Of a DNA stretch of 64,000 nt, positions 8,225 to 38,404 are shown piece by piece. This DNA is from a virus. Within the stretch, counting starts at the first letter, position 1. Each line of letters opens with the position of its first letter. The stretch is from positions 1 to 64,000 of the IMG/VR virus record IMGVR_UViG_3300045988_102159; one strand, given 5' to 3'. The notes beneath the pieces were generated by a model. The model had not been told where the DNA came from and searched no databases. It saw nothing but the letters and a program-made list of their open reading frames with translations. A program made the translations under genes and the position numbers.

Positions 8225-9697
8225 ATGGCTAAGAATGATTATACTAAAGAATCTATTCAATCGTTAACACCAAGAGAACATGTAAGAAAACGTCCATCTA
8301 TGTATTGTGGCGATACTTCAACTCCAAATCAGCTTATGATGGAGCTGTTTAGTAATGCTCTTGACGAACATAACATTGGTCATGGTGATATTATTGATGT
8401 ATCAATTGAAAAAAGCGGTTTGTGCCGTATTGAAGATTTTGCTCAAGGATTTCTTGTAGATGAAGTGCGAGAAGATGGTAAAACTGTTTTTCAAGCTGCA
8501 TTCGATACTATGAATACATCTGGCAAATATACAGATGATGGAGTATATGAAGGTTCAAGTTTGGGCCTTAACGGAATTGGTACAAAATTAGTAACATATC
8601 TATCTAAGAATGTAATGGCAGAAACAGTTCGTGAAGGTAAATGGGAATGTAATAGTTTTTCAGATGGTGTATGTTATAGTCATCAAAGTGGAAACGCTAA
8701 AGAAACTGCTCATACTGGTACGACTGTTACTTATCTTCCAGACGAACAATTTTTTGATACAGATAAAACATCGGTTTCATTTTTCAAAAAGTTTTTCAAT
8801 GATATTACCTGTATTTGTCCAACTTTAACAGTATTTTTAAATGGTGAAAAGATTAGCCATAACAGTATTGAAGATATGTTAGATGAAAAACGCGGTAAAG
8901 ACATTGAAATTGTTGGTAATCATTTTGTTATGAATACTGATAAAATCAATCTAGCTATGACTTTTACATCCGGCAGTCAAACAAAGATTATTCCATATGT
9001 CAACTATGGTATTACATCATCTGGACCGCATATTACGGGAATTAAATCAACTCTCACTCGTGTATTTAATAACTGGGCAAAAGAAAATAATCTTTTAACT
9101 GCTAAAGATAAAAATCTTGATGGTGCTGCAATCCAAGAAGGCATTGTATTGGTATGCAATATCAATAGCAAGGGTGTTAAATATAATGCGCAGGTAAAAG
9201 ACGATATTATTGATATGGATACTTCTTTTACTACTGCTCTTGGTCAGCAACTAGAAGTATGGCTAGATAGCAATCCAGAAGACGCAAAGGCTATTCTTGA
9301 AAAGGCTATCCTTGCGCGAAAAGCAGCAGAAGCAGCTAAACGTGCGCGTGCAGCAGTTAAAAATAATAAGAAACGTGGCAGTAACTTTTTGAAAATGCCA
9401 ACAAGTCTATCCGATTGTTGGTCAAAAGACCGTTCTATTTGCGAACTATATTTAACAGAAGGTCGAAGTGCATCTTCAAACATGGTTGCTGGTAGAGATT
9501 CTAAGTTCCAAGCTGTTTATGGAGTTCGAGGAAAAATGCTTTCTGTGTTAAAGGCAAAACAAGAAAGTATTATAAAGAATCAAGAAATCAATAATTTGAT
9601 TCAAGCTCTTGGTTTAGAGTTTAATCCTAAAACTGCAAAGTGCATTTATGATAAATCTAAATTAAGGTATGATAAAATTATTACTGCTACTGATGCT
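8225..9697 (+). CDS. gyrB: type IIA topoisomerase subunit B (GyrB/ParE-like), exon 1
   Basis: GHKL motifs ELFSNALDEH and GLNGIGTKL; Toprim LTEGRSA. The frame hits TAA two codons after ...ITATDA. The exon ends in U at 9697. Confidence 0.85.
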
Positions 9698-9751
9698 AAA
9701 TAAAATTGGCTGTGTAATATTTTTCTATTAATCAATAGGGTGCTTATTTTC

Positions 9752-9780
9752 TTGACAAAACATTATAATTATGGTATGAT
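9752..9780 (+). promoter_or_regulatory. intron-internal sigma70-like promoter upstream of the endonuclease ORF
   Basis: TTGACA 9752-9757, 17-nt spacer, TGgTATGAT ending 9780 (extended -10). Confidence 0.45.
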
Positions 9781-9918
9781 AGATTTCATATTAGATATAG
9801 ATGGAAGTCAAGTTGATAGGCGCTAACGGGGAAACCTAAATTATATATTTATAACATGGCAATCCCGTGACAAATTTTGTAAATCTAGCGCCTTTCAAAG
9901 AAATAGAAAGGTGTAAAC

Positions 9919-10875
9919 ATGGTAGGTATTTATAAGATAGTCAACAACATAAATGGCAAGTTTTATGTTGGTCAGAGTAATAACATAGATAGACGATGGT
10001 TAGAGCATTGTTCTCCGAGTAGGTATAAGCAGAGCAATATTCCAGTTGATTGGGCAATACACAAGTATGGAAAAGAAAACTTTTCTTTAATTGTTCTTCA
10101 AGAATGTTCTATAGAAGAATTAAATGAATTAGAAACATATTGGATTGAAAAGACTAACGCGGTTGAAGAAGGATATAATTGTAATATTGGCGGAGATTGC
10201 GGTTCTCGTGGAGAATGGAATCCTAGAGCTAAATTATCTGTATCTGATGTAATGTTTATTCGTAAATGCTATAATGAAAGGCTTATAACACAAAAAGAAG
10301 CGTATGAAACAGTAAAAGACAAAGTGTCTTTTAGCTCTTTTCAAGCTGTATGGCAAGGTAGAACTTGGGCAGAAATAATGCCAGAAGTATATACAGAGGA
10401 TAATAAAAATTATTATAAAAAAATGGCTGCGGTAAAGGTTTGTTCTAAGCTAACAGAAGAACAAATAATGTCAGCACGAAAGAAATATGCAGCTGGTGCG
10501 CAGGCTAAAGAGCTTTATAAAGATTACAAAGACATTATTACATATGAAAGTTTTCAGGGTATTTTATGCGGAAGATCAAATAAGCATTTACCATATTTCC
10601 ACAAGAAAACAAATAGATGGATTTTTCCAGGAGAACAGCCAGAAAAGAACGCCAATAGAGTAAATGATAATTCTGGTAGATATACTACCAATGCGTATTC
10701 TGACGAAGAAGTGCTTGAGTTTAGAAAACAATATGTTTCACAAAATTATAAAGAAGTCTATGAGAATAGCGATAAACGCCTTTCTAAAGAGTCTTTTCAA
10801 AAAATGCTAACTGGAAGAACTTACACTAATGTACCTGTTTATTCTAAAAAAACTCATGAATGGATTTACAAATAA
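9919..10875 (+). CDS. GIY-YIG homing endonuclease (intron-encoded)
   Basis: N-terminal GIYKIVNNINGKFYVGQS...RRWLEH...YWIEK...GYN, a classic GIY-YIG module, followed by a long linker and DNA-binding region. Confidence 0.85.
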   Translation: MVGIYKIVNNINGKFYVGQSNNIDRRWLEHCSPSRYKQSNIPVDWAIHKYGKENFSLIVLQECSIEELNELETYWIEKTNAVEEGYNCNIGGDCGSRGEWNPRAKLSVSDVMFIRKCYNERLITQKEAYETVKDKVSFSSFQAVWQGRTWAEIMPEVYTEDNKNYYKKMAAVKVCSKLTEEQIMSARKKYAAGAQAKELYKDYKDIITYESFQGILCGRSNKHLPYFHKKTNRWIFPGEQPEKNANRVNDNSGRYTTNAYSDEEVLEFRKQYVSQNYKEVYENSDKRLSKESFQKMLTGRTYTNVPVYSKKTHEWIYK

Positions 10876-10998
10876 AGTTGTATCGACTATCGCCGAAGCG
10901 GGCGAGTAAAACTATTATTGATACATAGTTTGAAATAATATCTTGTATTTTAATACAATAAGAGATAGTCAGGGCTTATAGAAATATAAGAATAACTG

Positions 10999-11218
10999 GA
11001 TTTTGATGGTTTCGCAATTGAAAACTTAATGCTTAATATCTTTTGGTATATTTGTCCAGAACTTATTTTAAATGGTCACGTATATAGTTCTGAACCCCCA
11101 CTTTTCAGAGTAATTACAAAGAAAAATGAGTATATATATTTAAAAGATGATGCAGCATTACAGCAATATAAACAAAAACATCCGAATAATGTTAAAGCAA
11201 TTACTAGAATGAAAGGGT
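10999..11218 (+). CDS. gyrB: type IIA topoisomerase subunit B, exon 2
   Basis: Encodes DFDGFAIENLMLNIFWYICPELILNGHVYSSEPPLFRV...ITRMKG, matching the GyrB TDADVDGxHI...AxPPLY...KGLGE region. Last nt t11218 is codon position 1 of Leu. Confidence 0.8.
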
Positions 11219-12307: not shown

Positions 12308-12492
12308 TAGGTGAACAGGATGCTGACGAATTATCATATTGTCTATTAGACCCATCCACTCGAAACATCAGTCTGCTAACTGTTGAAGATGTTGAAAAAG
12401 CAAATAATATGTTCAATGATTTATATGGTAAAAAGGTTGAGCCGAGAGTAGAGTTTTTAAATAAACACTTGGAGGAAGCAAATATTGGATAA
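12308..12492 (+). CDS. gyrB: type IIA topoisomerase subunit B, exon 3
   Basis: Encodes (L)GEQDADELSYCLLDPSTRNISLLTVEDVEKANNMFNDLYGKKVEPRVEF, collinear with the GyrB C-terminus. The three exons sum to 1878 nt (625 codons plus stop). Confidence 0.8.
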
Positions 12493-12706
12493 ATCAAATC
12501 TTATTGAAGTTGTTCAACAGAATTTTATTGACAGCTCATATGATGTAAATTGTAATAGGGCTTTTCCAAATGTTAAAGATGGATTAAAGCCTGGCCAAAG
12601 ATGTATTCTATGGGAAATGTATACAAAAAAATATACTAGTGACAAACCGCATGTTAAATCAGCAAAAATTGACGGAGGTGTAGCGGCGCTGTACTGGCCG
12701 CACGGT
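12485..12706 (+). CDS. gyrA: type IIA topoisomerase subunit A (GyrA/ParC-like), exon 1
   Basis: TTG start overlaps the subunit B stop. Encodes RAFPNVKDGLKPGQRCILW...KSAKIDGGVAALYWPHG, the GyrA N-terminal signature. The frame stops 3 codons after HG. Confidence 0.8.
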
Positions 12707-14088
12707 AGAATTAACTAATAGATTATATTTTTTATGGGCATATCTCTATTATTTTGTATATCTATTTTTTATATTATATAGCGATAAATAATATAAGAAA
12801 GGATATAAATATGAAAGCAGTAAAAGTATCAACCTATGAAGCAACTAAGTTTTATATGGAAGAGAATGAAAAAGGTTTGTCAAAATCAAAAGTAGCAGAT
12901 ATGTTTAAAATAGATAGGCATAGTTTTTGTAAATTAACTTGGAAAGATAAGTATAAAGAATTAGTATTTCCAAAAGAAGACAATGGATATTGCTATTATT
13001 TTGAACCAAAAGAATGGGAAGCAATTCAAGAATATATAAATAATCCTAATATTACTAAAAAAGAAATTAGAGATAAATATAATATATCTCAAAATGGAGT
13101 TTTTAGTCATTGGCTAGAGGTTCTTGGATACGAGGATACAGTTAGATATAAATACAATTTTAAAAGAGATATTTTTAGAGAAGAACCAACTCCAGAAATG
13201 GCATATTGGCTTGGTTTCTTATTAGCAGATGGTTGTATTATTGAAAATAAAATCAAAGGGAATTCAAAAGATTATATTTCATATAATGTTACTGTTCGTC
13301 TTGGAGATAAAGACAAAGAACACGTATATAAATTTGCTAAGTTTTTACAATATCCAGAAGAAAAATTAAATGAAGTTATTAAACCTTGCTATGGCGGTGC
13401 TTATGACAGGAATAATCTTTGTTGGGTTATTGATGTTTGCAGCACTGATTTATGTAAAGACTTACAAAAATATAATATTACTCCAAGAAAAAGCCTAAAA
13501 GAAAAGCCATTTATTTTTAATGATAGAGAGCTTGAATTAAATTATATTAGAGGTATTATTGACGGCGATGGATGGATTAGAAAACCCACTACAAGAGATT
13601 TAAGAATGGGTGTAGTTGGTTCAGAAGAAGTTTGTAATTATATTAGCAGTGTTTTAAAAGAGTATTTTCCTCATAAAATGGAACATGCAAAACCAAAAGC
13701 CCATAGCGAAAGTATTAGTTCAGATTTATATTATTGGCAAACGACTTGCCGAGAAGGAACTAAAAACGTATTAGAATTATTATATCCAGAAAATTGTCCT
13801 ATTTATTTAGATAGAAAATATGATTTAGCGCGTGCCGTGCTAAAACTGCTGAATTAAGCGGGAAAGCTAAGTTTAATATTAAATTAATATTGAATATGCT
13901 AATCCGAACCGAAGGCTAGTAATAAAATATTAGTCAGGGGCAGAGCATAGAAGATGAAACTGTAATTACAGAATATAATTCTTCCAAGAGTCAGCGGCTA
14001 CTTAATAATTTAAGTAGAAAAGATATGCCGAACTTATAGGAAACTATAAGAAATAGAGGATAAAAAGCCTTTATGATAACAAAAATTG
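12707..14088 (+). mobile_element. group I intron in topoisomerase A gene, with LAGLIDADG ORF in the P1 loop
   Basis: 1382 nt. Guide gccgtg (13834-13839, inside the ORF 3' end) pairs with exon end cacggt. The 3' 230 nt are homologous to the dnaB intron. Ends in G14088. Confidence 0.75.
12811..13857 (+). CDS. LAGLIDADG homing endonuclease (double-motif)
   Basis: ATG 12811 follows RBS aaggat. Two dodecapeptide motifs: LGFLLADGCI and IRGIIDGDGWI. Confidence 0.85.
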   Translation: MKAVKVSTYEATKFYMEENEKGLSKSKVADMFKIDRHSFCKLTWKDKYKELVFPKEDNGYCYYFEPKEWEAIQEYINNPNITKKEIRDKYNISQNGVFSHWLEVLGYEDTVRYKYNFKRDIFREEPTPEMAYWLGFLLADGCIIENKIKGNSKDYISYNVTVRLGDKDKEHVYKFAKFLQYPEEKLNEVIKPCYGGAYDRNNLCWVIDVCSTDLCKDLQKYNITPRKSLKEKPFIFNDRELELNYIRGIIDGDGWIRKPTTRDLRMGVVGSEEVCNYISSVLKEYFPHKMEHAKPKAHSESISSDLYYWQTTCREGTKNVLELLYPENCPIYLDRKYDLARAVLKLLN

Positions 14089-15945
14089 ACGCAAGCAATC
14101 TACGAAACCTTTGCTCGTATGTCTCAGCCTTTTACCAACAATGTACCAGAGGTTGATTTTCATGGAGCGAATGGCAATGTAATCTTGGGTGGAGACGCAA
14201 TCGCCGCAGACCGTTATACAGAAGCACGTCTTTCTAAAATTACAGAAGAGTTCATGCTTAATGGTATTGAAAAAAATACAGTTCCAATGGTTCTGAACTT
14301 TAGCGAAGACGAATATATGCCAGTAGTATTACCGTCATATTTTCCTAGACTTCTTGTTAATGGTGCTCAGGGCATCGGCGTTTCGATTGCCAATAATTGG
14401 TTGCCGCATAATCTTAAAGAAACAATTAACTTAATTGGAAAATATGTTAAAACAGGAAAATTTGAAGCAGATGAATACTATCCTGATTTTCCTACTGGTT
14501 GTACGATTGTTAATAAAGATGAGTTATCTTCAATCAATGAAACCGGAAAAGGTAAAGTAATTGTAGAAGCTACATATAATATTGATGGTAATGAAATTAC
14601 TTTTACTGAAATGCCATATCAAGTATACATAGAACCTTTAATTGCAAAAATTAAAGAACTAATTGAATCAGAAGATTTAATTGGTATTAAAGATGTATAT
14701 AACAAGAGTGACAAAAATGGCATAGCTTTAGTTGTTGAATGTCAAAAAGGATATACGGCAGAAAATGTATTACAGCAGCTATTCCAAGCAACTCCTTTAA
14801 GGTCGCAATATAATGTTAATCAGAATGGAATTATCAGTAAAACGCCAGTGCTTTTAAATTTACAACAAACTGTAGACGAATATCTGTTCCATTGTTTTGA
14901 ATGTTTGAAACGTGAAACTGAATATGATAAGAATCTTGCTGCACAAAGGAAAGAGATTCTAGAAGGATTAAAGTTTGCTTTAACAAACATTGATAAAATT
15001 ATTGAAATTATTCGTGGCTCAAATGATAAAACAAGTGCGGCAAATGAACTTAAAAAAGAATTTGAATTTACAGATAGACAAACTAAATCAATTCTTTCAA
15101 TGCCACTAATGAAATTAACTAAGTTGGATACTCAATCAATTAAAAAAGAGCTAATAGAAAAGAATGAAATCATTGCAAAGTGTGATTTAATCTTAAATGA
15201 TAAAAAGGAACTTGATAAAGTATTCTTAGCAAAGCTCAAAGATATGGGCAGGAAATATAGCACTCCACGCCGCACTAAAGTAGTCCAAAAAGAAATTACA
15301 AAGACGAAAAAGGCAAGGTCTTCTGCGCCAAAAGAGAATAGGAATTTTGTTATTGCCTTTAATCCTCTTGGCTATCTACAGAAAGTCTCACCTTCTAAGT
15401 ACAAGAGTGACGGTAGCCTTGCATTTACTGTATCTGAAGATAGAAAAGTAGCTTTGTTCTCGAATAAAGGACGATTCTTTAGGATTGCTCTTTCAGATAT
15501 TAAAGAATGCGGACCAAAGGATAAGGGAACAGCTATCGGTGCAATTATCAATCTTGATAATGACGAAAAAATTATTACAATTCACAACGATGTATTCGTA
15601 GATAAGCCTTATATGTTCTTTGTTACAGAGGACGGCAAGGTTAAGAAGTGTGAAGGTAAACAATTCGCTGGCGGCACACGTAACGTTAAAGGTTCTGTGG
15701 CCTTTAAGACCGATAGCAAAATTGTCAGCATCCAAGAGACAAATGGATGTGTTGTAACATTAACGTCAACCAAGAGACAGATTAGTTTCATGGCTGATAG
15801 TGTGCGGGCAAGCAGTATTCGCTCTGGCGGCATGTGCGGCATTAAGCTAGACGATGATGATAAGATTGTATCCATGACAATCACTGAGCCGCAGAATTTC
15901 ACAGGTAAAATTGCAAACAAGGGTGGACGAGGGATTCTTCTTTAA
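14089..15945 (+). CDS. gyrA: type IIA topoisomerase subunit A, exon 2
   Basis: Begins TQAIYETFARMSQPF, gap-free against GyrA DSAVYDTIVRMAQPF but with T where Asp is canonical. Catalytic-Tyr context AADRYTEARL; C-terminal beta-rich domain. Confidence 0.8.
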   Translation, partial: TQAIYETFARMSQPFTNNVPEVDFHGANGNVILGGDAIAADRYTEARLSKITEEFMLNGIEKNTVPMVLNFSEDEYMPVVLPSYFPRLLVNGAQGIGVSIANNWLPHNLKETINLIGKYVKTGKFEADEYYPDFPTGCTIVNKDELSSINETGKGKVIVEATYNIDGNEITFTEMPYQVYIEPLIAKIKELIESEDLIGIKDVYNKSDKNGIALVVECQKGYTAENVLQQLFQATPLRSQYNVNQNGIISKTPVLLNLQQTVDEYLFHCFECLKRETEYDKNLAAQRKEILEGLKFALTNIDKIIEIIRGSNDKTSAANELKKEFEFTDRQTKSILSMPLMKLTKLDTQSIKKELIEKNEIIAKCDLILNDKKELDKVFLAKLKDMGRKYSTPRRTKVVQKEITKTKKARSSAPKENRNFVIAFNPLGYLQKVSPSKYKSDGSLAFTVSEDRKVALFSNKGRFFRIALSDIKECGPKDKGTAIGAIINLDNDEKIITIHNDVFVDKPYMFFVTEDGKVKKCEGKQFAGGTRNVKGSVAFKTDSKIVSIQETNGCVVTLTSTKRQISFMADSVRASSIRSGGMCGIKLDDDDKIVSMTITEPQNFTGKIANKGGRGILL

Positions 15946-17008: not shown

Positions 17009-17011
17009 GTC

Positions 17012-21303: not shown

Positions 21304-21396
21304 ATGGCAATTGATATCTTTAATATTGAACCTCACAAAGTTAGTCGTTCGCTAGAGGGCTATACAATCATGTTTTACGGTGAGCCTAAAACGGGT
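21304..21396 (+). CDS. Sak4-like (AAA_24) recombination ATPase, exon 1
   Basis: 31 codons ending FYGEPKTG, the first half of Walker A. The frame stops 4 codons later. Confidence 0.7.
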
Positions 21397-22354
21397 GCTA
21401 CTAATTAAATGTTTTGCTCGTATATAATTGGGTAAATTGCGGGAAAGTCTTGATATTTTACTTATTTACTAAGCATTTTTGATGTGGCTGATGGTAATTC
21501 TTAAGGTATAGTAACAATAATAAGTAGAGAGATAATCCGCAGCGCTTTCTTTTAGAAGCGTTCAACGACTAGGTTTTATAACCGTAACTTTTATAAGTGA
21601 AATGCCCGATGGCATTAGTTGTGGAGAATTAAAATGAAAGAACAATGGAAAAAGATTTTTATTAATGGTCAATCTACAGTATATTCTGTCTCTAATTTAG
21701 GAAGAATACGGAATGACAAGAAAATGTCTATTTTAGATGGATATGTTAACAACAATGGTTATTCAATGGTTCATCTTCGTTATAGGATTGACAAAATGTG
21801 TAGTATTCATCGACTTGTTATGAGAGCCTTTAAACCGTGTGACGAAATGGATGATTTACAAGTTAATCATATTGATGGGAACAAACAAAATAATAATGTT
21901 CTTAACTTAGAATGGTGTGATTCGCTTTATAATATTCGTCATTCTTTTCGGACTGGACTTCAATCTAAAGAATTCCGTAAAACGTATTGTTATGATTTAG
22001 AAGGCAACTTTTTAAAGGAATATGAATGCGCAACAGATGCAGCCAAAGATTTAAATATAGATGTTTCTAATATTATTAGATGCTTAAACGAAGAGCAAAG
22101 TCATTATTTATCTTGGCAATTTAAATCTTATAAAAAAGGTAAAATTGATGAATGGTGTAACCCGCATAAAAATCAAGTTTATGTATATTTTGATAACGGG
22201 CAGTTTTATAAAGCCTACAAGTCTCAAGACGAATGTGCAAAAGATTTAGGACTTGGAAAGGCTTCAGTAAGTCGGTATATCCGAGGAATTAGAAAACTGC
22301 CAGATTTTGTTTTTTCAAAAATTCCACTCTAATGTTTTAAGATATAGTCTACTG
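21397..22354 (+). mobile_element. group I intron in Sak4-like ATPase gene, with HNH ORF
   Basis: 958 nt. Guide gctcgt (21416-21421) pairs with exon end acgggt. Ends in G22354. Blocks tgcgggaaa, aatccgcagcg and cgttcaacgacta are shared with the dnaE intron. Confidence 0.75.
21634..22332 (+). CDS. HNH homing endonuclease (NUMOD4 N-terminus, HTH repeats)
   Basis: EQWKKI...YSVSNLGRIRN (NUMOD4-like). HNH core VNHIDGNKQNNNVLNLEW...NIRH. Two HTH-like repeats: AAKDLNIDVSNIIRCL and CAKDLGLGKASVSRYI. Confidence 0.8.
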   Translation: MKEQWKKIFINGQSTVYSVSNLGRIRNDKKMSILDGYVNNNGYSMVHLRYRIDKMCSIHRLVMRAFKPCDEMDDLQVNHIDGNKQNNNVLNLEWCDSLYNIRHSFRTGLQSKEFRKTYCYDLEGNFLKEYECATDAAKDLNIDVSNIIRCLNEEQSHYLSWQFKSYKKGKIDEWCNPHKNQVYVYFDNGQFYKAYKSQDECAKDLGLGKASVSRYIRGIRKLPDFVFSKIPL

Positions 22355-23898: not shown

Positions 23899-24582
23899 TT
23901 GATTAGTAAATACTATGATTCTGTCGCGGCATTACAGGTAATTGGATGTTGTATGCGGAAACCTGAATACTTGGCGGCAGATGGACAATACTTCTTTTCA
24001 GAGCACGACTTTTGCAATGATTTACATAAGGTAGTATTTGGCGCTTTGTATAGTCTATATAACGCAGGTGTAACTGACCATCTTGCGCGAGAAATTGAAA
24101 ATTATCTTAAAGATAAGCCGAAAGCATATGCAATCTATAAAGCTAATAAAGGTCGAGAGTGGATGTTTGAAACTCATGCAAATGCTCACTTAGATGCTTT
24201 TGAGTATTATTATAGCCGTCTAAAGAAAATGTCTTTACTTCGCGCATATGATGATGTTGGTGTAGATGTATCTGATATTTATGACCCTGATAATATTTTA
24301 GATTCTGCAAAGAAGCAGGCACAAGACGAATATCTTGACGGCACGACATTAGAGCAATTAGCTGATGATATAGAGGGTAAATTTTATTTTATCAGGGATT
24401 TATATGTAGACAATAACGATAATGACTCTGTTGCTATTGGCGATAATGTCCAAAAGATTGTAGATGAATTGGCACAGCACCCTGCTCGTGGTTGGGCGAT
24501 GTATGATTTATATGAAGATGCAATCGCTATGGGCGCACGACCTGGCCGTTTTTATTTAAGAAGTGCGGCAACAGGTGTCGGT
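23899..24582 (+). CDS. dnaB: DnaB-family replicative helicase, exon 1
   Basis: TTG start after RBS aagggagga. N-terminal domain, then ...SAATGVG, which is Walker A minus its Lys. Confidence 0.75.
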
Positions 24583-24813
24583 AAAATGATTTGCCGACAA
24601 TAAACTGGGGAGAAAATCTGGAACCCTAAACTAAAAGGCAAGGGAATCAGAGGTGAAGATTAATTTTAAATTAACCAGCCGCAACGCATAGCAGGTGAAA
24701 AGATATAATCCTGCCACGAGGCCCCGGCTTTCTTTATAAGAAAGAAAAGATATGCTGAACTTGCGGGAAACCGTAAGAACCATAGGATAAAAAGCCTATG
24801 GGGTAACAAATTG
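24583..24813 (+). mobile_element. ORF-less group I intron in dnaB (231 nt)
   Basis: Guide gccgac (24593-24598) pairs with exon end gtcggt. Ends in G24813. Its GAAA-capped helix covaries with the gyrA intron homolog. Confidence 0.8.
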
Positions 24814-25692
24814 AAATCAAGAACTGGTGTTGCTGATGCTTGTTTTTTCTCATGTTCTGAGTATTATTCAGATGAAGGTAAATGGGAGCGTTTATATAAT
24901 CGAGTACCTACTTTATATATTTCAGTAGAGTTAGACATTGAAGAGCTTACAACTATGGCGCTAGCTTTTATCGGCAATATTCCAGAAGACCATATTGTTG
25001 AAATGGATTTACTTACTTTTGAAGAGGAAGAGCGATTAAAGAGAGCTGTAAAGATTCTAGAAGAAGCGCCACTTCGTATGGAATATCTTCCTAATTATGG
25101 TATGAAAGATGTTGAGAATTGTATTAAACGCAATATGCGCAAATACAAATATCCACGATTAGATGAACATGGCAATACAGATTACCTAACTTTTCAATGT
25201 GTTGTCTTTGACTATCTAACATCATCTATTAAGATGATTGAAGAAATCTCACATGGAACTGGTGTAAAAATCCGTGAGGACCAGATTCTATTCCTTATGT
25301 CATCTAAACTTAAAGAAATAGCTGTCGAAAATAATATCTTTCTCTTGTCAAGCACGCAAATTAATGGTAGTTACAAGCAAGAGAAAATCTTAGACCAGAA
25401 CATGCTGGCTGGTGCAAAATCAATCGCAAACAGAATCGACTATGGTGAAATCATGGTCGATTGCACAGATGAAGATATTCAAGATATTGAAGGTGTTTTG
25501 GCGCAGCATCCCGGCATGTGTCCACCAAATGTAAAAAGAAGCGTATATAAGAATCGACGAGGGAAATTCAACCGTGTTATTTGTTGGATGCGCGCGAATA
25601 AAGGTACTTGTCGATATAAGACTTTATTTGTAACTGACTTCTCTTTCAAACCAATAGACAAAGATGAAATCTTCCAGAAGAAGAAAGAATAG
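24814..25692 (+). CDS. dnaB: DnaB-family replicative helicase, exon 2
   Basis: Starts KSRTGVADACFF, so Walker A becomes GVGKS. RecA-like core with Walker B-like VVFDYL. Confidence 0.75.
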   Translation, partial: KSRTGVADACFFSCSEYYSDEGKWERLYNRVPTLYISVELDIEELTTMALAFIGNIPEDHIVEMDLLTFEEEERLKRAVKILEEAPLRMEYLPNYGMKDVENCIKRNMRKYKYPRLDEHGNTDYLTFQCVVFDYLTSSIKMIEEISHGTGVKIREDQILFLMSSKLKEIAVENNIFLLSSTQINGSYKQEKILDQNMLAGAKSIANRIDYGEIMVDCTDEDIQDIEGVLAQHPGMCPPNVKRSVYKNRRGKFNRVICWMRANKGTCRYKTLFVTDFSFKPIDKDEIFQKKKE

Positions 25693-28964: not shown

Positions 28965-29216
28965 ATGAAACTTCAAATTGAAGAAGCTGAACTGAGGAAT
29001 CTTGCACATAAGGCAGCACGTTATGATATTATTATGGATGCTCTTATTCGTGAAAAGTTCGATAAGATTGACATTTATAGTGATTGGGAAATGACTGAAG
29101 ACTATATGCAAGACATTATCAATCAGCAGCCAAGTGATATTAAGCCTGTAAACGAAGATAAAATTAAAGCAGACCGAGATTGGATGGATAAGCATCCTGA
29201 CTTTGGAATAATTTAA
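28965..29216 (+). CDS. hypothetical protein
   Basis: 83-aa ORF starting immediately after the previous TAA. Confidence 0.5.
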   Translation: MKLQIEEAELRNLAHKAARYDIIMDALIREKFDKIDIYSDWEMTEDYMQDIINQQPSDIKPVNEDKIKADRDWMDKHPDFGII

Positions 29217-29220
29217 TTTA

Positions 29221-29259
29221 AAAAGCCCTCTAGTTTTTATTTGACTAGAGGGCTTTTTT
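29221..29259 (+). terminator. intrinsic terminator
   Basis: aaaagccctctag/ctagagggctttt stem plus a T-run. Confidence 0.75.
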
Positions 29260-29269
29260 GTGTTATAAT
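29241..29269 (+). promoter_or_regulatory. sigma70-like promoter overlapping the terminator
   Basis: TTGACT 29241-29246, 17-nt spacer, TATAAT 29264-29269. Confidence 0.5.
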
Positions 29270-29750: not shown

Positions 29751-32255
29751 GTGCTTGACAAATATCCCGGCAGCCTTCACAACCATACAGATTTCTCAAA
29801 TCTTAGACTTAAAGATTCAATTAACACAGTAGACCGTTTAATGGATTATGCTTTGGAACTTGGTCAAGATGTATTAGCCTTTACAGAGCATGAATCAGTA
29901 GCTAATGCAGTCAAGATTCAAGAAGCATATGAAAAGCGCAAACAGGATAATCCAAATTTCAAAGTGATTCTTGGCAATGAGATATACCTGGTCCGCAATG
30001 GGCTTAATAAAGATAATTTTAATCCAGAAGAAGATAGGTATTTTCACTTCATTCTATTGGCTAAAAACACAGAAGGCCACAAGCAAATTCGTGAGATTTC
30101 AACGCGAGCTTGGATGCGTTCTTATATGGCTCGTGGTATGCGGCGAGTGCCAACATATTATCAAGACTTAATTGATATTATCGGTAAAAATAAAGGTAAC
30201 GTTATTGCTTCAACCGCGTGCCTCGGAGGGCAATTACCAGCTTATCTTCTCAAATATAAGCAAACAAACGATAAAGCATATATTAAACAAGCTATCAAAT
30301 GGCTTAATGGAATGGTTAAACTTTTCGGCAAGGGTAATTTCTTTCTAGAAATGCAACCTTCTAATAATGAAGAGCAAATCTATGTTAATAAGTTGATTAA
30401 AGAACTATCTCATAAATTAGATATTCCATATATTATCACTTGTGATGCTCATTATTTAAAGAAAGATGAAGCATTCATCCATGAGACATACTTGAAATCT
30501 CAAAATGGTGAGCGTGAAGTCTCTGAGTTCTATGCAACTACCTATCTCATGGGAACAGAAGAACTTGAAGAATTCTTTGAATATTTTACAAAAGAAGATA
30601 TCTGTGCCGCATATGAAAATATTGAATATATTAAGAATCAATGCGAAGATTATAATCTTAAAAAGCCTTTAAAGATTCCTCAACTACCTTGGAAATATAG
30701 CTATATCACAGACGAGCAAGTAAAATCTTTTCAAGATAAAATTCCTAACCTAAAATATCTTACTGAATCTGATTTTGAAGGTGACAAACTTCTTGGCAGA
30801 CTAATTATTCAAGGCATCCAAGAGAAAGAAGATTTACAGAATCAAGATGCTTATGATGAAATCAACATTGAACTAGAGTCTGTCTATCAAAGTTCTCTTG
30901 TAAATAAAACGCATTGGTCTTCATATTTTCTTAACTTGCAGAAAATCATTGATACCATTTGGGAAGCCGGTTCTATTGTTGGCTGTTCAAGAGGAAGTGG
31001 CGGTGGCTTCCTTATCTTATATGTTCTGGGCATTATCCAGATTAACTGTCTAAGAGAGACTACAAAGACATTCCACTGGAGGTTCCTTAATCCCGCACGT
31101 GTCTCTGTCTTAGATGTAGATATTGATGTATCTGGTCTGCGCCGCAAGCAAATCTTAGACAAGTTTAGAGAAGTCTATGGAGAAGATAGAGTCTGTAATG
31201 TTCTTACTCTTGGTACAGAAAGTACGAAATCAGCCATTCTAAGTGCGGCAAGAGGTCTCGGAATTGATAATGATGTGGCGCAATACATTGCTTCTCTAGT
31301 CCCTTCTGACCGTGGCTTAATTCGTTCTTTGCATCAATGCTACTATGGCGATAGCAAAGAAGGAATGAAACCAGTTATTCCTTTTGTCAATGAAATGAAG
31401 CAGCGTCCAAAACTGTGGGAAGTTGCTTGTCGAATTGAAGGTCTAATTTGTCGCTCTGGAATACACGCGGGAGGACTTGTCTTCGTTGATGAACCATTTA
31501 CGGAGACGGCGGCTCTTATGCGTGCTCCCGATGGGACTATTATTAGTCAATTTGACCTCCACGACTTGGAGAAATTATCGCTCATTAAATACGACTTGCT
31601 TTCGGTCGAGGCGATGGACAAGATTCAGGTCTGCCTTGAACTGTTAGTAAAATACGGTTATCTTAAATGGTCTGGAACCCTGAGAAAAACTTACGAAGAT
31701 GCTATCGGTATCTACAATCTAGAACGAACAGATTCTAAGATGTGGAAAATGGTATGGGAACATAAGATTCAATCTTTATTCCAAATGGAAAAGTCAAGTG
31801 GAATTCAAGGCATCGCGCTAACACATCCTAAATCTGTTGACGATTTAGCCACTCTTAACAGTGTGATTCGACTTATGGCGCAAGAAAAAGGCGCTGAAAC
31901 ACCTCTTGAAAAATATGCAAGATTCAAGAAAGATATTTCTTTATGGTATCAAGAAATGGACTCTTATGGTCTAACAAAAGAAGAACAAAAGATTCTTGAA
32001 CCCGTTCTTAAAATCTCTTATGGTCTGTGCGAGTCTCAAGAGCGCTTTATGATGCTTGTCCAGATTCCAGAGTGTGGCGGCTTTGACCTAAACTTCGCCG
32101 ATCGGTTAAGAAAATCTGTCGCAAAGAAGGACCCGGCTGGATACAAGGCTTGTGAAAAGGAATACTTTGAACGAGTCCAAGAACGCGGCTTGAGTAAAAA
32201 CCTTTGCAATTACGTATGGAACGTATGTGTCGCAACAAGTCGAGGATATGGCTTT
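29751..32255 (+). CDS. dnaE: DNA polymerase III alpha subunit (DnaE-like), exon 1
   Basis: GTG start. PHP domain SLHNHTDFS...AFTEHES. The exon ends ...ATSRGYGF and the frame stops 3 codons later. Confidence 0.8.
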
Positions 32256-32540
32256 AAAACGAATTGAAGCCCTATATAGTGATATATAGTACAAATTGCC
32301 TAACATGCGGGAAACTCCTAAAACTTTATATTACTAAACTAATACAGCAATGTATTAGCGGCAAAGAGTAATGTCTGAGATATAGTAATAAGATATAAAG
32401 ATATGTGGACAATCCGCAGCGAAGTTTCTATTTAAAATAGAAAAACGTTCAGAGACTATAATGGCACATCTTATATAAGATGAAGGTATAGTCCAGACAG
32501 CAACCAGTTTACTGGGCTTATGAAAATTAGTGCTGTAAAG
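32256..32540 (+). mobile_element. ORF-less group I intron in dnaE (285 nt)
   Basis: Guide gaagcc (32266-32271) pairs with exon end ggcttt. Ends in G32540. Shares core blocks with the Sak4-gene intron. Confidence 0.8.
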
Positions 32541-33893
32541 AATTTGAGCCATACTTTGGCTTACTCACTTGTAGCCCTTCAAGAAATGAATCTTGCTTAC
32601 AAATACCCTATTATCTTTTGGAATTGCGCAAACTTAATTGTAGATAGTGGTACAATTGAAGGTATTGATGACAAAACATCTGATTATAATAAGATTGCAC
32701 GTGCCGTCAATAAAAACAAATTAGCAGGAATTAAAGTATCGCTTATTGACATAAATAAGTCAGAGCTATCTTTCACGCCAGACGCAGAAACAAATACAAT
32801 TCATTATGGTCTTGGCGGTTTACAAGGTGTAGGCAACGAAGTCGCGCAAACGATTATCAATAATCGCCCATATAATTCTATAGAAGATTTTATGGATAAG
32901 ACAAAAGTAAATAAAACAGTTATGGTTTCCTTAATTAAATCTGGAGCTTTTGACCAATTCGGCAAACGCAAAGATATTATGAAGCAATATCTATATACTA
33001 CAATCAATCCCAAAAAACGTTTAACTATGCAGAACTTTAATGCACTTATCGAAAATAATCTTGTGCCGCAAAAACTCAAATTCCAAAAGCAAGTATTTAA
33101 TTTTAATAAAGGGCTGAAAAAAGATTACAAATATAATGCAGATTATTTTGCATTAGAGGGTGTTTACTACAAATTTTATGTTAAGTTTTTCAATGAAGAT
33201 AATATTGAACCAATAGACAATAAGCTATGTTTAAACAAAAAGGCATGGAAAAAAGAATATAATTCAGTAATGAGTGCGGCCAAACAATATATTGCGGATA
33301 ATCAACAAGAGCTATTAGATAAGTTAAACAATAAAATGTTAAAAGATGCTTGGAATAAATATGCGGCAGGTACAATTTCTCATTGGGAAATGGAAAGTCT
33401 AGGCATGTATTATCATAAGCATGAATTAGTTAATATTGATAGTTCATTATATGATATTGTAGATTATACGAAACTTAACCGCACGCCTATTGTAGATTAT
33501 ACATTTAAGCGTAACGGCGCGGAGATTCCAATTTTTAAAACTTTTAAAATTGCTGGAACAGTTATTGCAAAAGATGAAATGCACTCACAAATTACTTTAC
33601 TTACTACTACTGGCGTAGTGGAAGTTAAAATGTCTAAAGAATATTTTTCACAATACAATAAACGTATTAGTGAAGTCAGACCAGACGGCACTAAAAAAAT
33701 TATGGAACAAGGTTTCTTCCAGCGTGGCACAATGTTGGTATGCAATGGTATTAGACGTGGAGATACTTTCGTATTAAAGGCGTATAAACGTAAAGGAAAT
33801 GTACAGCATCAACTATATAAAATTACGAAAGTAAATAAAGATGGCACCATAGAAATGACCAATAATCGTTATGGCGAAAATGTTGACAATTAA
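32541..33893 (+). CDS. dnaE: DNA polymerase III alpha subunit, exon 2
   Basis: Starts NLSHTLAYSLVALQ, giving GYGFNLSHTLAY across the junction (compare DnaE GYGFNKSHAAAY). HhH region and OB-fold-like C-terminus. Confidence 0.8.
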   Translation, partial: NLSHTLAYSLVALQEMNLAYKYPIIFWNCANLIVDSGTIEGIDDKTSDYNKIARAVNKNKLAGIKVSLIDINKSELSFTPDAETNTIHYGLGGLQGVGNEVAQTIINNRPYNSIEDFMDKTKVNKTVMVSLIKSGAFDQFGKRKDIMKQYLYTTINPKKRLTMQNFNALIENNLVPQKLKFQKQVFNFNKGLKKDYKYNADYFALEGVYYKFYVKFFNEDNIEPIDNKLCLNKKAWKKEYNSVMSAAKQYIADNQQELLDKLNNKMLKDAWNKYAAGTISHWEMESLGMYYHKHELVNIDSSLYDIVDYTKLNRTPIVDYTFKRNGAEIPIFKTFKIAGTVIAKDEMHSQITLLTTTGVVEVKMSKEYFSQYNKRISEVRPDGTKKIMEQGFFQRGTMLVCNGIRRGDTFVLKAYKRKGNVQHQLYKITKVNKDGTIEMTNNRYGENVDN

Positions 33894-34650: not shown

Positions 34651-35032
34651 ATGATTTTTCAAGTACGATAAGGAGTGTTTGAAACTAATTCAAGCTCAAC
34701 ACATACGTTAACTATCTGCTCAAAAGATGATTTTGACAAGTGGAAACATGGCGAGGTATTCTGGCTTGATAACGATTGGCACAAGTTAGATACAAATAAG
34801 AATTTTGTCACTCCAGAAGAACTGAAAGAGCTTGCGGAAAAGCCTTATGCCGCAAGATAAATGGGATATGTTCTATATGGGTGATGAAGGTAGCTCCACG
34901 ATGTATGTTGATATGGTCAATCGTGAGTTTGCGGCGAATTCTACGTCTGAAACTCGCTATCCTCTTTTGGACAATGTAGAAGATATGTTGAAAGTAATTC
35001 ACCAAGAGAAGAAGGGAAAAGATATTGACTAA
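34651..35032 (+). pseudogene. disrupted ORF (in-frame TAA plus +1 frame break)
   Basis: ATG 34651 with RBS aagagga, TAA at codon 7. The same frame continues GVFETNSSSTH... to 34860, and the sequence then continues in the +1 frame from about 34832 to 35032. Confidence 0.35.
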
Positions 35033-36224
35033 ATATATTACAAAGCGAAATGGAAATAAAGTAGAGTTCGATATTTCTAAGATTGAAAATGCGGTATTTC
35101 GTGCGGCATGTGATGTTTCTGGTACTCATGGATGGACATCAACGTTTTGTCATGAGGTTGCGAAAGATATTGCGCATGATTTTGAAAAAGCTGAGTATTA
35201 TCATGACGGCATGACGGTAGAAGAGATTCAAGATGCTGTTGAAGAACTGCTCATGGGCGATTTTCCGCATGTTGCAAAGTCATATATGATTTATCGTTAC
35301 GAACATCAGATTGCACGCCAGAAACAACTTGACAAAGAGTTTTTTGAAGTAATTGGCAACTATGAAGATGGCTATTGGGCAACAGAAAATTCAAATAAAC
35401 GAGCAGAATTAGTTACAACCCAACGAGACTACCTTGCCGGGGTTGTAAGTAGAGATATTGCAAGAAACTATATTTTCCCAAAAGATATTGTAAAAGCCCA
35501 TGATGAAGGTATTATTCACATTCATGATATGGATTATGCCGCGCAAAAAACCCTTACAAATTGTTGCTTAATTAACTTAGAAGATATGTTGCAGAATGGA
35601 ACCGTTATTAACGGAGTAACTATTGATAAACCACATCGTTTAATCACAGCTTCGACGATTGCAAGCCAAATTATTGCCTGCGTTGCTAGTTCACAATATG
35701 GTGGGTCGTCAATTACACTGACTCACCTTGCTCCTTTTGTTAGGGATAGTTACAATTTATATTTAGAAAAATATAAAAATCGTGGTTTTAGTGAAGAGCT
35801 ATCTATTAAATACGCTAAAGAAGACACAAAGAAAGAAATTGCTGATTCCATCCAGACTTTAAATTATCAAATCAATTCTTTAATGACTACAAATGGTCAG
35901 ACACCTTTCTTGACGATTTTCTTATATCTGAATGAAACCGAAGAGTACAAGGAAGAATTAGCGGCTTTAATTAAAGAAATGCTGAACCAACGAATCCTTG
36001 GCATGAAGAATCGTCAAGGCGTATATGTGACCGTTGCTTTTCCAAAATTAATTTATTGTCTTGAAGAAGATAATATTAAAGAGGGTACTAAATATTGGTA
36101 TCTTACTGAGCTTGCGGCAAAGTGTTCTGCTAAACGTTTAGTTCCAGATTATATTTCAGAAAAAGTTATGAAGCAGCTAAAAGTAGACAGTAATGGTAAC
36201 GGTCATTGCTTCCCTTCGATGGGT
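35025..36224 (+). CDS. nrdD: anaerobic ribonucleoside-triphosphate reductase NrdD, exon 1
   Basis: TTG start after RBS gaaggg. ATP-cone ITKRNGNKVEFDISKIENA. The exon ends ...CFPSMG. Confidence 0.85.
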
Positions 36225-36421
36225 CAGTGTAAACTATAGCCCATATAAAATCTTTTGAATTCGGATAGGACTTAGATTTAAGTTGAGTCCGAGCTAAATA
36301 AATGTGTATCGACTATCTGTGATGAATGTAACAGAGTAAAGTAGTTAAACTACTTGAAGAAAAAGACTATCCAATAAGATAGATGATATAGTCAGTGCGG
36401 CAGGTGACTGCCGATAACATG
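36225..36421 (+). mobile_element. ORF-less mini group I intron in nrdD (197 nt)
   Basis: Guide gcccat (36239-36244) pairs with exon end atgggt. Ends in G36421. Core blocks gtatcgactatc and gatatagtcag. Splicing rebuilds PSMG-CRSFL. Confidence 0.75.
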
Positions 36422-37072
36422 TGTAGAAGTTTCTTATCGGTATGGCCGAAAGATGAAAATAAGTTTTATGGACGTGCAAACATTGGAGTTTGTACAATTA
36501 ATTTACCAGATGCAGCCTTTTCTTCTAATGGTGATAAAGACAAATTCTGGCAACTATTAGATGAACGTGCTGAAATGTGCCACACAGTACACAAAATCAG
36601 GGCAAACCGTATTGCAAATACGCAAGCAAAGGTTGCTCCTATTTTATGGTGTGATGGCGCTTTAGCAAGATTAAAACCAGAAGATACTTTAGGTAAGCTG
36701 GTTTATAGCGGTTATCTTACCGCTTCTCTTGGTATGGCTGGCTTATACGAGTGTACTAAGTATATGACTGGTGAAAGTTTAAGCGAACCAAAAGGCAACG
36801 CATTTGGTAAACAGGTAATGAACTTTTTAAATAAAAAATGTGAAGAGTGGAAAGCCGAAGATGGTATCGCATATTCGCAATACGGTACTCCTTTAGAAAG
36901 CAGCACGTATACGTTTGCTAAAAGTTTAAGAAAGCGTTTTGGAAAAGTAAAAGGAGTAACGGACGATAGAGATTATATTACTAACTCTTATCATATTCCA
37001 GTATTTGAACATATTGACGCTTTCTCTAAGCTGTCTATCGAATCTGGTTTCCAGTCGCTTTGTCAGGGTGGT
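36422..37072 (+). CDS. nrdD: NrdD, exon 2
   Basis: Starts CRSFLSVW...GRANIGVCTINLPDAA, collinear with NrdD. Ends ...FQSLCQGG. Confidence 0.85.
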
Positions 37073-38062
37073 TAGATTCAATATAACCTTTTTGTAGCCA
37101 CCCAAAATCGCGTGAACTGTTATCCAACAGGTGTCTATTTAAAATAGGCTAACGGTAAAAATCATTTGACAATACCGTGCTAAATTATTATAATATAATA
37201 AAAAGTGTACAGACTAATTATTAGGTCGGGGATGGATGCCGTCCGAAGTGCGCGAGGTGTGAAGCAGTGTTTTCCTGCTACGCTAAGATATAGTCGAAAG
37301 GTAAAAAATGAAAAATCAATGTGAAATTTGTGGAAGAGAAACAAATAGAATTTATCACGTTTGGGGATATACTCTATGCTCTAAACATATGCATCAATAT
37401 CATAAATATGGAAAGTTTTTAGATAATAATCCAAGAACCAATAACGATTTAAACGACTTTTATCAAGACAAAGACAATCCAAACATTACATACTTTAATT
37501 TATATAATCAAAAGAATGAGTGCATTGGACGCTTTATTGTAGACACAGAAGACGTATCTAAAATTAGATATAAAAAATGGCGCAAAAGTCATGGTCACGT
37601 TGTAACGGGCTTACCAGCAAAAGGCACCCAACAAGACTTAACTCATATCCTTCTAGACTTTGACCCAAAAGAAGATAGATATATTGTTATTGACCATATT
37701 AACGGGGACGCTTTAGATAATAGAAAGCAGAATCTAAGAATTTGTACACAAGGAGAAAATTGTTGCAATAAAAAACTAGCTTCTAACAATACTAGTGGTT
37801 TTAATGGAATATCTTATAGAAAAGATAAAGATAGATATGACCCAGAAATTAGAATGCAAAACAAAAGATGTCATTTAGGCTACAGCAAAACGCTAGAAGA
37901 AGCAGTTTATAGACGATATGTGGCAGAAGAGCTTGTATTCGAAAACTATGTAAGAGAAGAAGAGCATGAAAAAGCTCGCCTTTTTACTCAAAATCTTCCG
38001 CAAAAGGAAAAAGAACGCTTAGAAAAAATTGTAAAAGCAAAATTAAAAGCTAAAGACCTTTG
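37073..38062 (+). mobile_element. group I intron 2 in nrdD, with HNH-AP2 ORF
   Basis: 990 nt. Guide gccacc (37097-37102) pairs with exon end ggtggt. Ends in G38062. The catalytic core lies 5' of the ORF. Confidence 0.8.
37166..37194 (+). promoter_or_regulatory. intron-internal sigma70-like promoter upstream of the HNH ORF
   Basis: TTGACA 37166-37171, 17-nt spacer, TATAAT 37189-37194. Confidence 0.45.
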
Positions 38063-38069
38063 GCAATAA
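37308..38069 (+). CDS. HNH homing endonuclease with AP2-like DNA-binding domain
   Basis: HNH core IDHINGDALDNRKQNLRICTQGENCCNK. AP2-like SGFNGISYRKDKDRYDPEIRMQNKRCHLGYSKTLEEA. The stop codon lies 7 nt inside nrdD exon 3. Confidence 0.8.
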   Translation: MKNQCEICGRETNRIYHVWGYTLCSKHMHQYHKYGKFLDNNPRTNNDLNDFYQDKDNPNITYFNLYNQKNECIGRFIVDTEDVSKIRYKKWRKSHGHVVTGLPAKGTQQDLTHILLDFDPKEDRYIVIDHINGDALDNRKQNLRICTQGENCCNKKLASNNTSGFNGISYRKDKDRYDPEIRMQNKRCHLGYSKTLEEAVYRRYVAEELVFENYVREEEHEKARLFTQNLPQKEKERLEKIVKAKLKAKDLWQ

Positions 38070-38404
38070 GTTATATTGAAACTACAAATCTACAAGGTAA
38101 TATTAAAGCTGTAGAAAAAGTTATTCAATTTATTTATGACCATATTATGTATGCAGAACTAAATACTAAAAGCGATTATTGTCAAGTATGTGGGTACGAT
38201 GGTGAAATTGAATTAAAATATAATGAGGAACAACACAAACATTATTATCAATGCCCAAATTGTGGTAATAAAAATTTTGATAAAATGAATATTGCTCGCA
38301 GAGTTTGCGGTTATATTTCTACCAGCCTCCCAAACGAGGGCCGCTTAGGCGATATTGCAGATAGATATGTTCACATTGATGACCATGAGATTGGTGAAGA
38401 ATGA
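38063..38404 (+). CDS. nrdD: NrdD, exon 3 (glycyl-radical C-terminus)
   Basis: AISYIET...CQVCGYDG...CPNCGN...ARRVCGYIS: zinc ribbon plus the RVCGY glycyl-radical motif. The three exons sum to 730 codons plus stop. Confidence 0.85.
   Translation, partial: AISYIETTNLQGNIKAVEKVIQFIYDHIMYAELNTKSDYCQVCGYDGEIELKYNEEQHKHYYQCPNCGNKNFDKMNIARRVCGYISTSLPNEGRLGDIADRYVHIDDHEIGEE

Follow-up and report, generated by a model that had tools for sequence, protein, structure and literature searches.

Eight probable group I introns, predicted to self-splice, within six genes of the replication module of an uncultivated phage

The stretch of DNA analyzed here (64,000 nt, positions 1 to 64,000 of the IMG/VR virus record IMGVR_UViG_3300045988_102159; hereafter the window) contains, at 8225-38404 on the + strand, an uncultivated phage's module for replication and nucleotide metabolism, six genes of which have very probably been invaded by eight group I introns (I1 to I8) that we predict, from sequence comparison, to be self-splicing. 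The interrupted hosts are topoisomerase B (two introns), topoisomerase A, a Sak4-like ATPase, a DnaB-like helicase, DnaE and NrdD (two introns). Together the introns sum to 6,433 nt (21% of the 8225-38404 segment), at a local density of one per 3.8 kb. The original prediction, which had proposed eight group I introns in 30 kb, agrees with the covariance models, the comparative structures, the empty sites of relatives and the endonuclease open reading frames (ORFs) described below. That mobile group I introns lodge in conserved motifs of replication genes in phages is textbook knowledge. The finding is real and its local density very high; it adds one more instance to a known phenomenon and changes no concept.

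The closest cultured relatives by NrdD are Enterocloster phages (56% identity), in which nrdD is uninterrupted. Since megablast of a 25-kb query against a phage collection gave just a single 60-nt match, we consider that the phage has no close cultured relative. A motif scan of the remaining window found no further intron cores.

Host genes, junctions and restored proteins

The junctions were placed by translating the sequence around each of them, and the resulting boundaries are exact. The features, in their order along the segment, are as follows.

8225..9697, +, topoisomerase II B-subunit (GyrB/ParE-like) exon 1, ends ...ATDA
9698..10998, +, intron I1, IA2-like, terminal G
9919..10875, +, GIY-YIG homing endonuclease ORF in the P6 loop of I1 (Pfam PF01541, E 4e-13)
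10999..11218, +, topoisomerase B exon 2, DFDG...RMKG and base 1 of a Leu codon
11219..12307, +, intron I2, IA2-like, with guide and P7
11438..12187, +, GIY-YIG homing endonuclease ORF in the P6 loop of I2 (Pfam PF01541, E 5e-8)
12308..12492, +, topoisomerase B exon 3, two last bases of the Leu codon, GEQDADEL...ANIG, stop
12485..12706, +, topoisomerase II A-subunit (GyrA/ParC-like) exon 1, ends ...YWPHG
12707..14088, +, intron I3, I3/I5 family (RF00028 32.8 bits, E 6e-7)
12811..13857, +, LAGLIDADG-type endonuclease ORF in loop L1 of I3 (Pfam LAGLIDADG_3; phrog_4645 E 3e-43)
14089..15945, +, topoisomerase A exon 2, TQAIYE...
21304..21396, +, Sak4-like (AAA_24) ATPase exon 1, ends GEPKTG
21397..22354, +, intron I4 (RF00028 41.4 bits, E 2e-7)
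21619..22332, +, HNH/NUMOD (I-HmuI-like) endonuclease ORF in the P8 loop of I4 (Pfam HNH_3, NUMOD1, NUMOD4, I-HmuI_NUMOD-like)
22355..23278, +, Sak4-like exon 2, KTSTAAKF...
23899..24582, +, DnaB-like helicase exon 1, ends ATGVG
24583..24813, +, intron I5, ORF-less, I3/I5 family, with guide and P7 3' strand
24814..25692, +, DnaB-like helicase exon 2, KSRTGV...
29751..32255, +, DnaE (Pol III alpha-like) exon 1, ends RGYGF
32256..32540, +, intron I6, ORF-less (RF00028 62.9 bits, above gathering score)
32541..33893, +, DnaE exon 2, NLSHTLAYS...
35025..36224, +, NrdD exon 1, ends FPSMG
36225..36421, +, intron I7, ORF-less, compact IA2-like, 197 nt (RF00028 30.9 bits, E 9e-6)
36422..37072, +, NrdD exon 2, CRSFL...LCQGG
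37073..38062, +, intron I8 (RF00028 12.3 bits; core 37073-37295)
37308..38069, +, HNH endonuclease ORF in the 3' part of I8 (Pfam HNH_3; phrog_99 E 2e-29)
38063..38404, +, NrdD exon 3, AISYIE..., Zn ribbon, glycyl-radical motif RVCGY

A T precedes and a G ends every one of the eight introns, as had been predicted, and in-frame stop codons stand 0-6 codons past each junction, in keeping with the earlier reading of a stop shortly after each interrupted motif. Joining the exons yields uninterrupted ORFs at all junctions, and the joined proteins align with their homologues (slashes mark the intron positions) without gaps: NrdD with 9d3x (across MG/CRSFL and GG/xIxY), topoisomerase B with ParE 4juo (across TDA/DxDG and KG/LGE), topoisomerase A with GyrA 4z2c (across HPHG/xxxIYE) and DnaE with Taq Pol III alpha (across GYGF/NxSH). 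The proposal that the exon lengths sum in frame is therefore upheld by open joined frames and by solved homologues alike. The two Walker A junctions are covered by Pfam AAA_24 (full profile) and DnaB_C, and PHROGs names the respective proteins Sak4-like and DnaB-like helicase; a PDB sequence search with the DnaB-like protein returned zero matches, and Pfam and PHROGs were used in its place.

The I2 junction interrupts a codon (GGG T/.../TA GGT), a split that is backed by the uninterrupted allele AAA GGC TTA GGT of a relative (L115, a 144-kb IMG/VR contig), and this keeps the piece downstream from being a gene of its own in that frame. At I8, an alternative in-frame terminal G is not available. 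The original prediction had each intron splitting a catalytic motif, which stands for the two Walker A loops, for DxD of the Toprim domain and, with probability, for the MGC loop of NrdD, and needs rewording for KGLGE, GyrA PHG/IYE and GYGFNxSH, which are conserved functional motifs and not catalytic residues.

Replication and ribonucleotide reductase genes are classic intein hosts, and group II introns have recently been reported in phages (PMC12350094). We nevertheless exclude both, together with assembly or frameshift artefacts. The in-frame stops after every junction, from which inteins had already been ruled out, are joined by the absence of a Hint domain from the inserts, in which only endonuclease domains were found, and no inteins were seen in the window. 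The inserts range from 197 to 1382 nt and carry no reverse transcriptase, which argues against group II introns, and artefacts are contradicted by the recurrence of the same inserts in independent contigs and by boundaries that coincide with clean empty sites.

Ribozyme cores and intron families

The search with the Rfam group I intron model (RF00028, curated gathering threshold 50 bits), which had been suggested as a check, placed I6 above the threshold (62.9 bits), the sole one of eight, and gave sub-threshold matches for I4 (41.4 bits, E 2e-7), the 3' 270 nt of I3 (32.8 bits, E 6e-7) and I7 (30.9 bits, E 9e-6), while the others were resolved by comparison. The group I core of I4, I6 and I7 is seen in these alignments.

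All eight introns contain an exon-matched internal guide with a terminal U.G pair, which spans 5-7 bp in I2-I8. The guide had previously been reported for seven introns, among which I1 is the weak case; I3 also has one (GCCGUGC, 7 bp with the exon end), located 1.1 kb downstream of the exon, within the end of the endonuclease ORF, a position that is probably the reason why it was missed. The guides and core strands (P, L and J standing for paired regions, loops and joining segments) were located as follows.

I1: P10 9702-9707; guide GGC 9708-9710; P7 GACUAU 10885-10890 / AUAGUC 10965-10970
I2: guide GCCCUU 11232-11237; P7 12197-12202 pairs with 12273-12278
I3: guide 13834-13840; P3 5' strand CUGCUGA 13846-13852, directly after the guide; P7 3' strand UAUGCC 14024-14029
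I4: guide GCUCGU 21416-21421; P7 GACUA 21567-21571 / UAGUC 22345-22349; 3' splice site 5 nt past P7
I5: guide GCCGACA 24593-24599; P7 3' strand UAUGCU 24751-24756
I6: guide GAAGCC 32266-32271; P7 32454-32458 pairs with 32489-32493
I7: guide GCCCAU 36239-36244; P7 36311-36316 / 36388-36393; P7.1 and P7.2 present
I8: guide GCCACCC 37097-37103; P3 UCGCGUG/UGCGCGA; P7 37212-37216 / 37291-37295

Because the guide and the P3 5' strand of I3 overlap the last codons of its LAGLIDADG ORF, this ORF is assigned to loop L1.

I3 and I5 have common 3' ends, and a 26-base pattern running from J8/7 to P9 recovered >118 IMG/VR loci, 52 of which were aligned and their structure derived by hand. The cores of this family are conserved and covary: 93% of the cells are paired, compensatory changes occur in 44 of the 58 pairs, and the covariation score (0.586) compares with 0.174 for shuffles and <=0.115 for slid partners. 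Covariation extends over P3 (6/6 pairs), P4-P6, P7, P7.1, P8, P9 and P9.1, with a single covarying hairpin between the P7 5' strand and the P3 3' strand. The outer P7 pair (A-U in 33, G-C in 19, unpaired in 0) is followed by a bulge and then by an invariant G-C, an R-Y, bulge, G-C arrangement that we take to be that of the Tetrahymena guanosine-binding site (C262-G312, A263 bulge, G264-C311). A first guess at P7 in this family (CAGC/GCUG) was dropped in favor of R-Y, bulge, GCAUA/UAUGC, which covaries perfectly.

I1, I2 and I7 are linked by the string UGUAWCGACUAUC, followed by two hairpins and then ...ARAUAGUC, and I1 and I2 also have the same P7.2 loop (UAUUGAUAC). In their J6/7-P7 (GUAWCGACUAUC), in P7.1/P7.2 and in AAGAUAUAGUC these three introns presumably resemble the td intron. 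The pattern CGACTATC-N14-40-TATTGATAC matched >119 loci, with the P7 3' strand also present in 63 matches. The I1/I2 family alignment (n=50) recovered P7, P7.1, P7.2, P8 and P9: P7 does not vary, pairing is 100% in P7.1 and 99.4% in P7.2, and the latter covaries at 7/7 pairs. Among the matches are ORF-less introns at KG/LGE (L056) and in a recJ-like gene (L062); L026 carries an I2-type dnaE intron 2 nt upstream of the I6 site, and in L020 a second gyrB-like gene is interrupted at TDA/DVDG. The P3 helix of the family was located by position and by compensatory examples (CACAUC/GAUGUG, UCUGUC/GGCAGA, AAUAUCU/GGAUAUU and the P3 of I8). A first model of I1, in which GGCGCUA/UAGCGCC closed P4-P6 and P7 lay upstream of the ORF, was dropped because comparison with L020 and I2 placed P7 after the ORF and had GGCGC closing a local hairpin. 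As a separate observation, L026 also contains (6369-6595) a td-like intron that scores 85 bits on RF00028.

The presence of both P7.1 and P7.2 between the P7 5' and P3 3' strands, the mark of subgroup IA2, was found in I1, I2 and I7, and I4 and I6 have insertions at the same position in the Rfam alignments. Homologues of I7 (L121, L124, L129, L135) show compensatory changes in P7.1 (CUGU/ACAG, GGC/GCC, UCC/GGA), changes in step in P7.2 and a P9 that is GCGGCAG/CUGCCG or GCGGUAG/CUACCG; these were read from the sequences with no formal count, MAFFT having misaligned P7.1/P7.2. The core of I8, assigned by hand only, lies whole within the first 223 nt and has the 5'-domain layout of the I1/I2 family; the HNH ORF comes after it and ends in a stop codon that reaches 7 nt over the 3' splice site. 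The I2-type loop L1 (window 11219-11231; also in L026 and L056) starts with AAGAGAUAGUC, a copy of the J8/7-P7 3' strand consensus that could pair with the P7 5' strand GACUAUC and might be a competing structure or a remnant.

Several observations weigh against reading all eight inserts as group I introns. The Rfam curated score is reached by only one of the eight, the values are close to noise level for I5 (13.7 bits) and I8 (12.3 bits), and no match was obtained for I1 and I2, since a ~1-kb ORF splits the core of each. Gathering-threshold scans of the ORF-less L026, L056, L062 and L077 found nothing beyond the unrelated td-like intron in L026, and the ORF-less homologue of I2 at the same KG/LGE site (L056) reached 26.3 bits (E 9e-5), so that the limit appears to be the coverage of RF00028 rather than the sequences. 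The absence of a group I core in covariance searches, which the original prediction had named as its own refutation, is thus a test that would have half-failed at the curated threshold alone, the intron families being poorly covered by the model. The exon-guide pairing of I1 (P1, GCU/GGC) is just 3 bp; its P10 (GAUUUU/AAAAUU) spans 6 bp, and in L020 this helix and the exon have changed together. I1, I2 and I8 depart from the textbook P1-P2-P3 order by having two hairpins between the P3 5' strand and J3/4, an order that recurs in the ORF-less L026, L056, L062 and L077 (P3 first, then two covarying hairpins before UAA-P4), while I6 and I7 keep the standard P1-P2-P3-J3/4-P4. The cross-pairing control for P3 of the I1/I2 family discriminates weakly (diagonal mean 5.9 bp vs 4.25 off-diagonal), and the 3' splice site of I8 lies ~770 nt beyond its core. 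To the same side belong a TTG located exactly at the start of NrdD exon 3, from which a separately translated C-terminal glycyl-radical piece is conceivable, and an in-frame ATG inside I6, 7 codons upstream of the 3' splice site.

These two start codons, the only conceivable ones for downstream fragments (TTG 38060 for NrdD exon 3, ATG 32520 for DnaE exon 2), bear on a different explanation, namely that the genes were split by the insertion of endonuclease genes and that the separate polypeptides reassemble with no RNA splicing. Such splits have precedents in phage topoisomerase and ribonucleotide reductase genes (T4 topoisomerase genes 39/60 with mobA, Aeh1 nrdA with mobE, and also phage 25 gene 43; PMC2988022), the upstream fragments all stop within a few codons of the junction, and free-standing endonuclease genes also occur in the window. 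We nonetheless hold this explanation to be highly improbable, considering that I5, I6 and I7 lack an endonuclease gene, that I2 splits a codon, that topoisomerase B exon 2 is a piece of just 73 codons and a start codon is lacking close to the junction of exon 3, that all eight inserts have an exon-matched guide and a P7 pair, and that the core helices covary over ~50 homologues per family. For I8, whose exon 3 starts at TTG, the split-gene idea is a minor possibility.

Considering, on the side of group I introns, how far I1, I2 and I8 diverge from the familiar architecture, one may ask if they form a structurally distinct, uncatalogued IA branch (two hairpins, the P7.2 loop UAUUGAUAC, and AAGAGAUAGUC in some L1 loops); we regard this as doubtful. 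Introns of this type, which the curated Rfam model misses, are very common in phages from the gut and the environment, with >100 IMG/VR loci as a lower bound. Apart from the introns, a strong terminator-like hairpin with a U-run (window 29181-29264, after the ORF 28965-29216) was the source of weak Rfam 'leader' matches.

Occupancy among relatives and homing

The introns are polymorphic in their presence among relatives, for which we used IMG/VR contigs of 71-148 kb (several from gut-type samples) at ~75-98% nucleotide identity, with about a dozen close relatives added by a DnaE-based search. The sites of I2, I3, I4, I5 and I6 are empty in close relatives exactly at the predicted junctions. 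L115, which is 90-96% identical over the compared part, has I1 without I2, I3 and I4, and runs straight through the three junctions (AAA GGC TTA GGT; CAC GGG ACC CAA; GEPKCGKS). I4 is absent in eight relatives, at GGA/AAA, and I5 in four (L124, L125, L135, L138); in L122 and L128 its loop L1 is longer by ~850 nt, with the remnant of an endonuclease ORF in the L122 copy. Empty-site sequences for I4, I5 and I6 come from L122 and L124. I6 is absent in L124 (GGG TTT AAT CTT) and is replaced in six relatives by a ~1.2-kb insert at or near its site. The I7 site is occupied in seven relatives and empty in five, and NrdD is uninterrupted in L128, L130, L132, L138 and L139, whose alleles are more diverged. 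I8 is found only in the window, being absent from all relatives examined. The relatives L122-L139 have inserts at up to four dnaE sites (window-equivalent 31084, 31574, 32114, 32255), as exemplified by L139, with inserts of ~950, 1245 and 273 nt in addition to I6. Judged from the sequences, this occupancy is the pattern that would be expected of homing elements.

At three sites (12706, 21396, 24582) the intron-less allele reads GGG or GGA and the intron-bearing one GGT (L115, L122, L124), so that here a U at position -1 occurs only in occupied alleles, a difference that fits co-conversion or selection for the U.G pair. In another part of the module, the window has a ~1-kb deletion relative to nearly all relatives (34675-35032, breakpoint 34842/34843), just upstream of nrdD, which leaves the first 61 codons of an ORF of 150 amino acids and the last 66 of a radical-SAM-like ORF of 325 amino acids (CxxxCxxC); an intron in the relatives was considered for this difference and rejected in favor of a deletion in the window.

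Five introns contain endonuclease ORFs, GIY-YIG in I1 and I2, LAGLIDADG in I3 and HNH in I4 and I8, placed in L6 (I1, I2), L1 (I3), L8 (I4) and, downstream of P7, the P9 region (I8), and I5, I6 and I7 are ORF-less. Group I splicing chemistry is established, and we infer from sequence that it, as well as endonuclease activity and homing, would operate here. Each intron would be transcribed within its host gene, the last exon bases pairing with the internal guide into a P1 closed by a U.G wobble. An external guanosine bound in P7 would attack after the exon U of P1, and the freed exon 3'-OH would then attack after the terminal G of the intron, with P10 assisting, so that the exons are joined and the motif is restored. 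In co-infections, the intron endonucleases would cut intron-less alleles, whose repair would copy the intron in; endonuclease homing would account for the location of the inserts in the nucleotide stretches of highest conservation and for the differences in occupancy among close genomes. Endonuclease decay seems to have been caught at different stages in the ORF-less I5 and in the variant of L122/L128, which bears an ORF.

It is also conceivable that the inserts are group I introns by descent and that one or more of them, most plausibly I1 or I8, has lost self-splicing, in which case a protein cofactor or maturase would be required or the host gene would be non-functional in this genome. The short P1 of I1 would agree with such a loss, as would, for I8, the weak Rfam score, the remote 3' splice site and the lack of a homologue at its site in any relative examined, and decay is visible elsewhere (the deletion at 34842, the ORF remnant in the I5 copy of L122). 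Yet the same weak P1 and covarying P10 of I1 are kept in L115 and in the distant gyrB-like gene of L020, which argues that I1 functions as it stands; the T4 nrdD intron has the same layout as I8, and the host genes all have essential replication functions and intact exons. We therefore deem a loss of self-splicing improbable, and prefer to regard all eight as putatively self-splicing introns. Eight ribozymes stacked in one replication module could possibly make the expression of the module dependent on splicing conditions.

Other endonuclease-like genes stand outside the introns. Three free-standing paralogues (window 1532-2461, 18939-19949, 40365-41171) have the C-terminal motif ...FDFYLP...IE(F/Y)DG.QH and match phrog_559 and phrog_9084 ('HNH/homing endonuclease'). 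The 18939-19949 gene is missing from L115 and the relatives that span the site, the 40365-41171 gene is missing from most relatives, and the three look like independently mobile genes alongside the introns. In addition, a 294-amino-acid ORF (17349-18233) combines an N-terminal membrane and coiled-coil part with a C-terminal GIY-YIG domain (residues 196-278), has no recognisable DNA-binding domain and overlaps the listed thyX ORF (18142-18924); a fusion is one possible origin, the decay of a free-standing endonuclease another.

Relation to known phage introns

The practical consequences concern annotation, in which six essential genes would appear as 14 fragments and the Rfam curated threshold would flag only one of the eight introns. 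The two recovered families, each with >100 IMG/VR loci, are poorly covered by the general model, and therefore the intron loads of Firmicutes-infecting gut phages are probably underestimated. The site-by-site differences in occupancy among relatives (~75-98% identity) offer a natural experiment on the gain, decay and loss of homing endonucleases, and the insertion sites (two in the Toprim domain, the GyrA quinolone-resistance region, two Walker A loops and the DnaE GYGFNxSH) may indicate new endonuclease specificities.

Outside the compared contigs, a likeness to I3 was found in the Clostridium perfringens phages phiCP39-O, phiCP26F and phiCP9O, which have 60 nt that are 95% identical to its 3' end (P9 to P9.1). 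In phiCP39-O (L001, NC_011318) an I3/I5-type insert at ~1640-2565 contains the annotated HNH gene gp07 and is itself unannotated as an intron. It resembles I3 in the P9/P9.1 match and in its 3' end (AACAAAGUG), and differs from it in the structural host gene, in an HNH instead of a LAGLIDADG endonuclease and in a more diverged upstream core. The insert appears to split an HK97-gp10-like head gene, as gp06 ends with ...VEYAPY and the frame resumes at DLENGTSRQPARPTLKPA.

The window shares with T4 the presence of self-splicing-type introns in nucleotide-metabolism genes of a lytic phage, the GIY-YIG or HNH homing endonucleases in peripheral loops and the variable occupancy among close relatives (PMC2988022). 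I8 has the layout of the T4 nrdD intron, with the core first and the ORF near the 3' splice site (I-TevII in T4, ~14 nt before exon 2). The two systems differ in the insertion points (near residue 277 of this NrdD for the T4 intron, residues 400 and 617 here), in numbers (3 introns in 169 kb in T4, 8 in 30 kb here), in the hosts, which here also include topoisomerases A and B, Sak4, DnaB and DnaE, and in I1, I2 and I8, which place two hairpins after the P3 5' strand and not a P2 before it.

Like the module described here, Twort and other Herelleviridae (Twortvirinae, Bastillevirinae) have multiple group I introns per genome, several per gene, and their targets are DNA and nucleotide-metabolism genes (PMC11878797); HNH/NUMOD I-HmuI-like endonucleases occur in them as in I4. 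They belong to another lineage, with another host range and other host genes, whereas the contigs considered here come from the gut and are related to Enterocloster phages. The original prediction had compared the very high density to that of Twort, which is a fair comparison, but the density is not unique, given that crAss-like and Jug phages are intron-rich too and >100 phage introns were known by 2025 (PMC11878797). In the Zeta/Delta crAss-like and the Jug jumbo phages, likewise uncultivated and from the gut, introns and homing endonucleases fragment core genes, nrdD and polymerase among them, with up to 14 introns per 145-192 kb genome in Zeta crAss-like phages (PMC7886860) and an average of 18.5 per 360-402 kb genome in Jug phages, where nrdD is split and metatranscriptomes provided partial validation (PMC12880540). 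These phages infect Bacteroidota, in contrast to the present lineage, which groups with phages of Clostridia (Enterocloster), and its local density of introns exceeds their genome averages.

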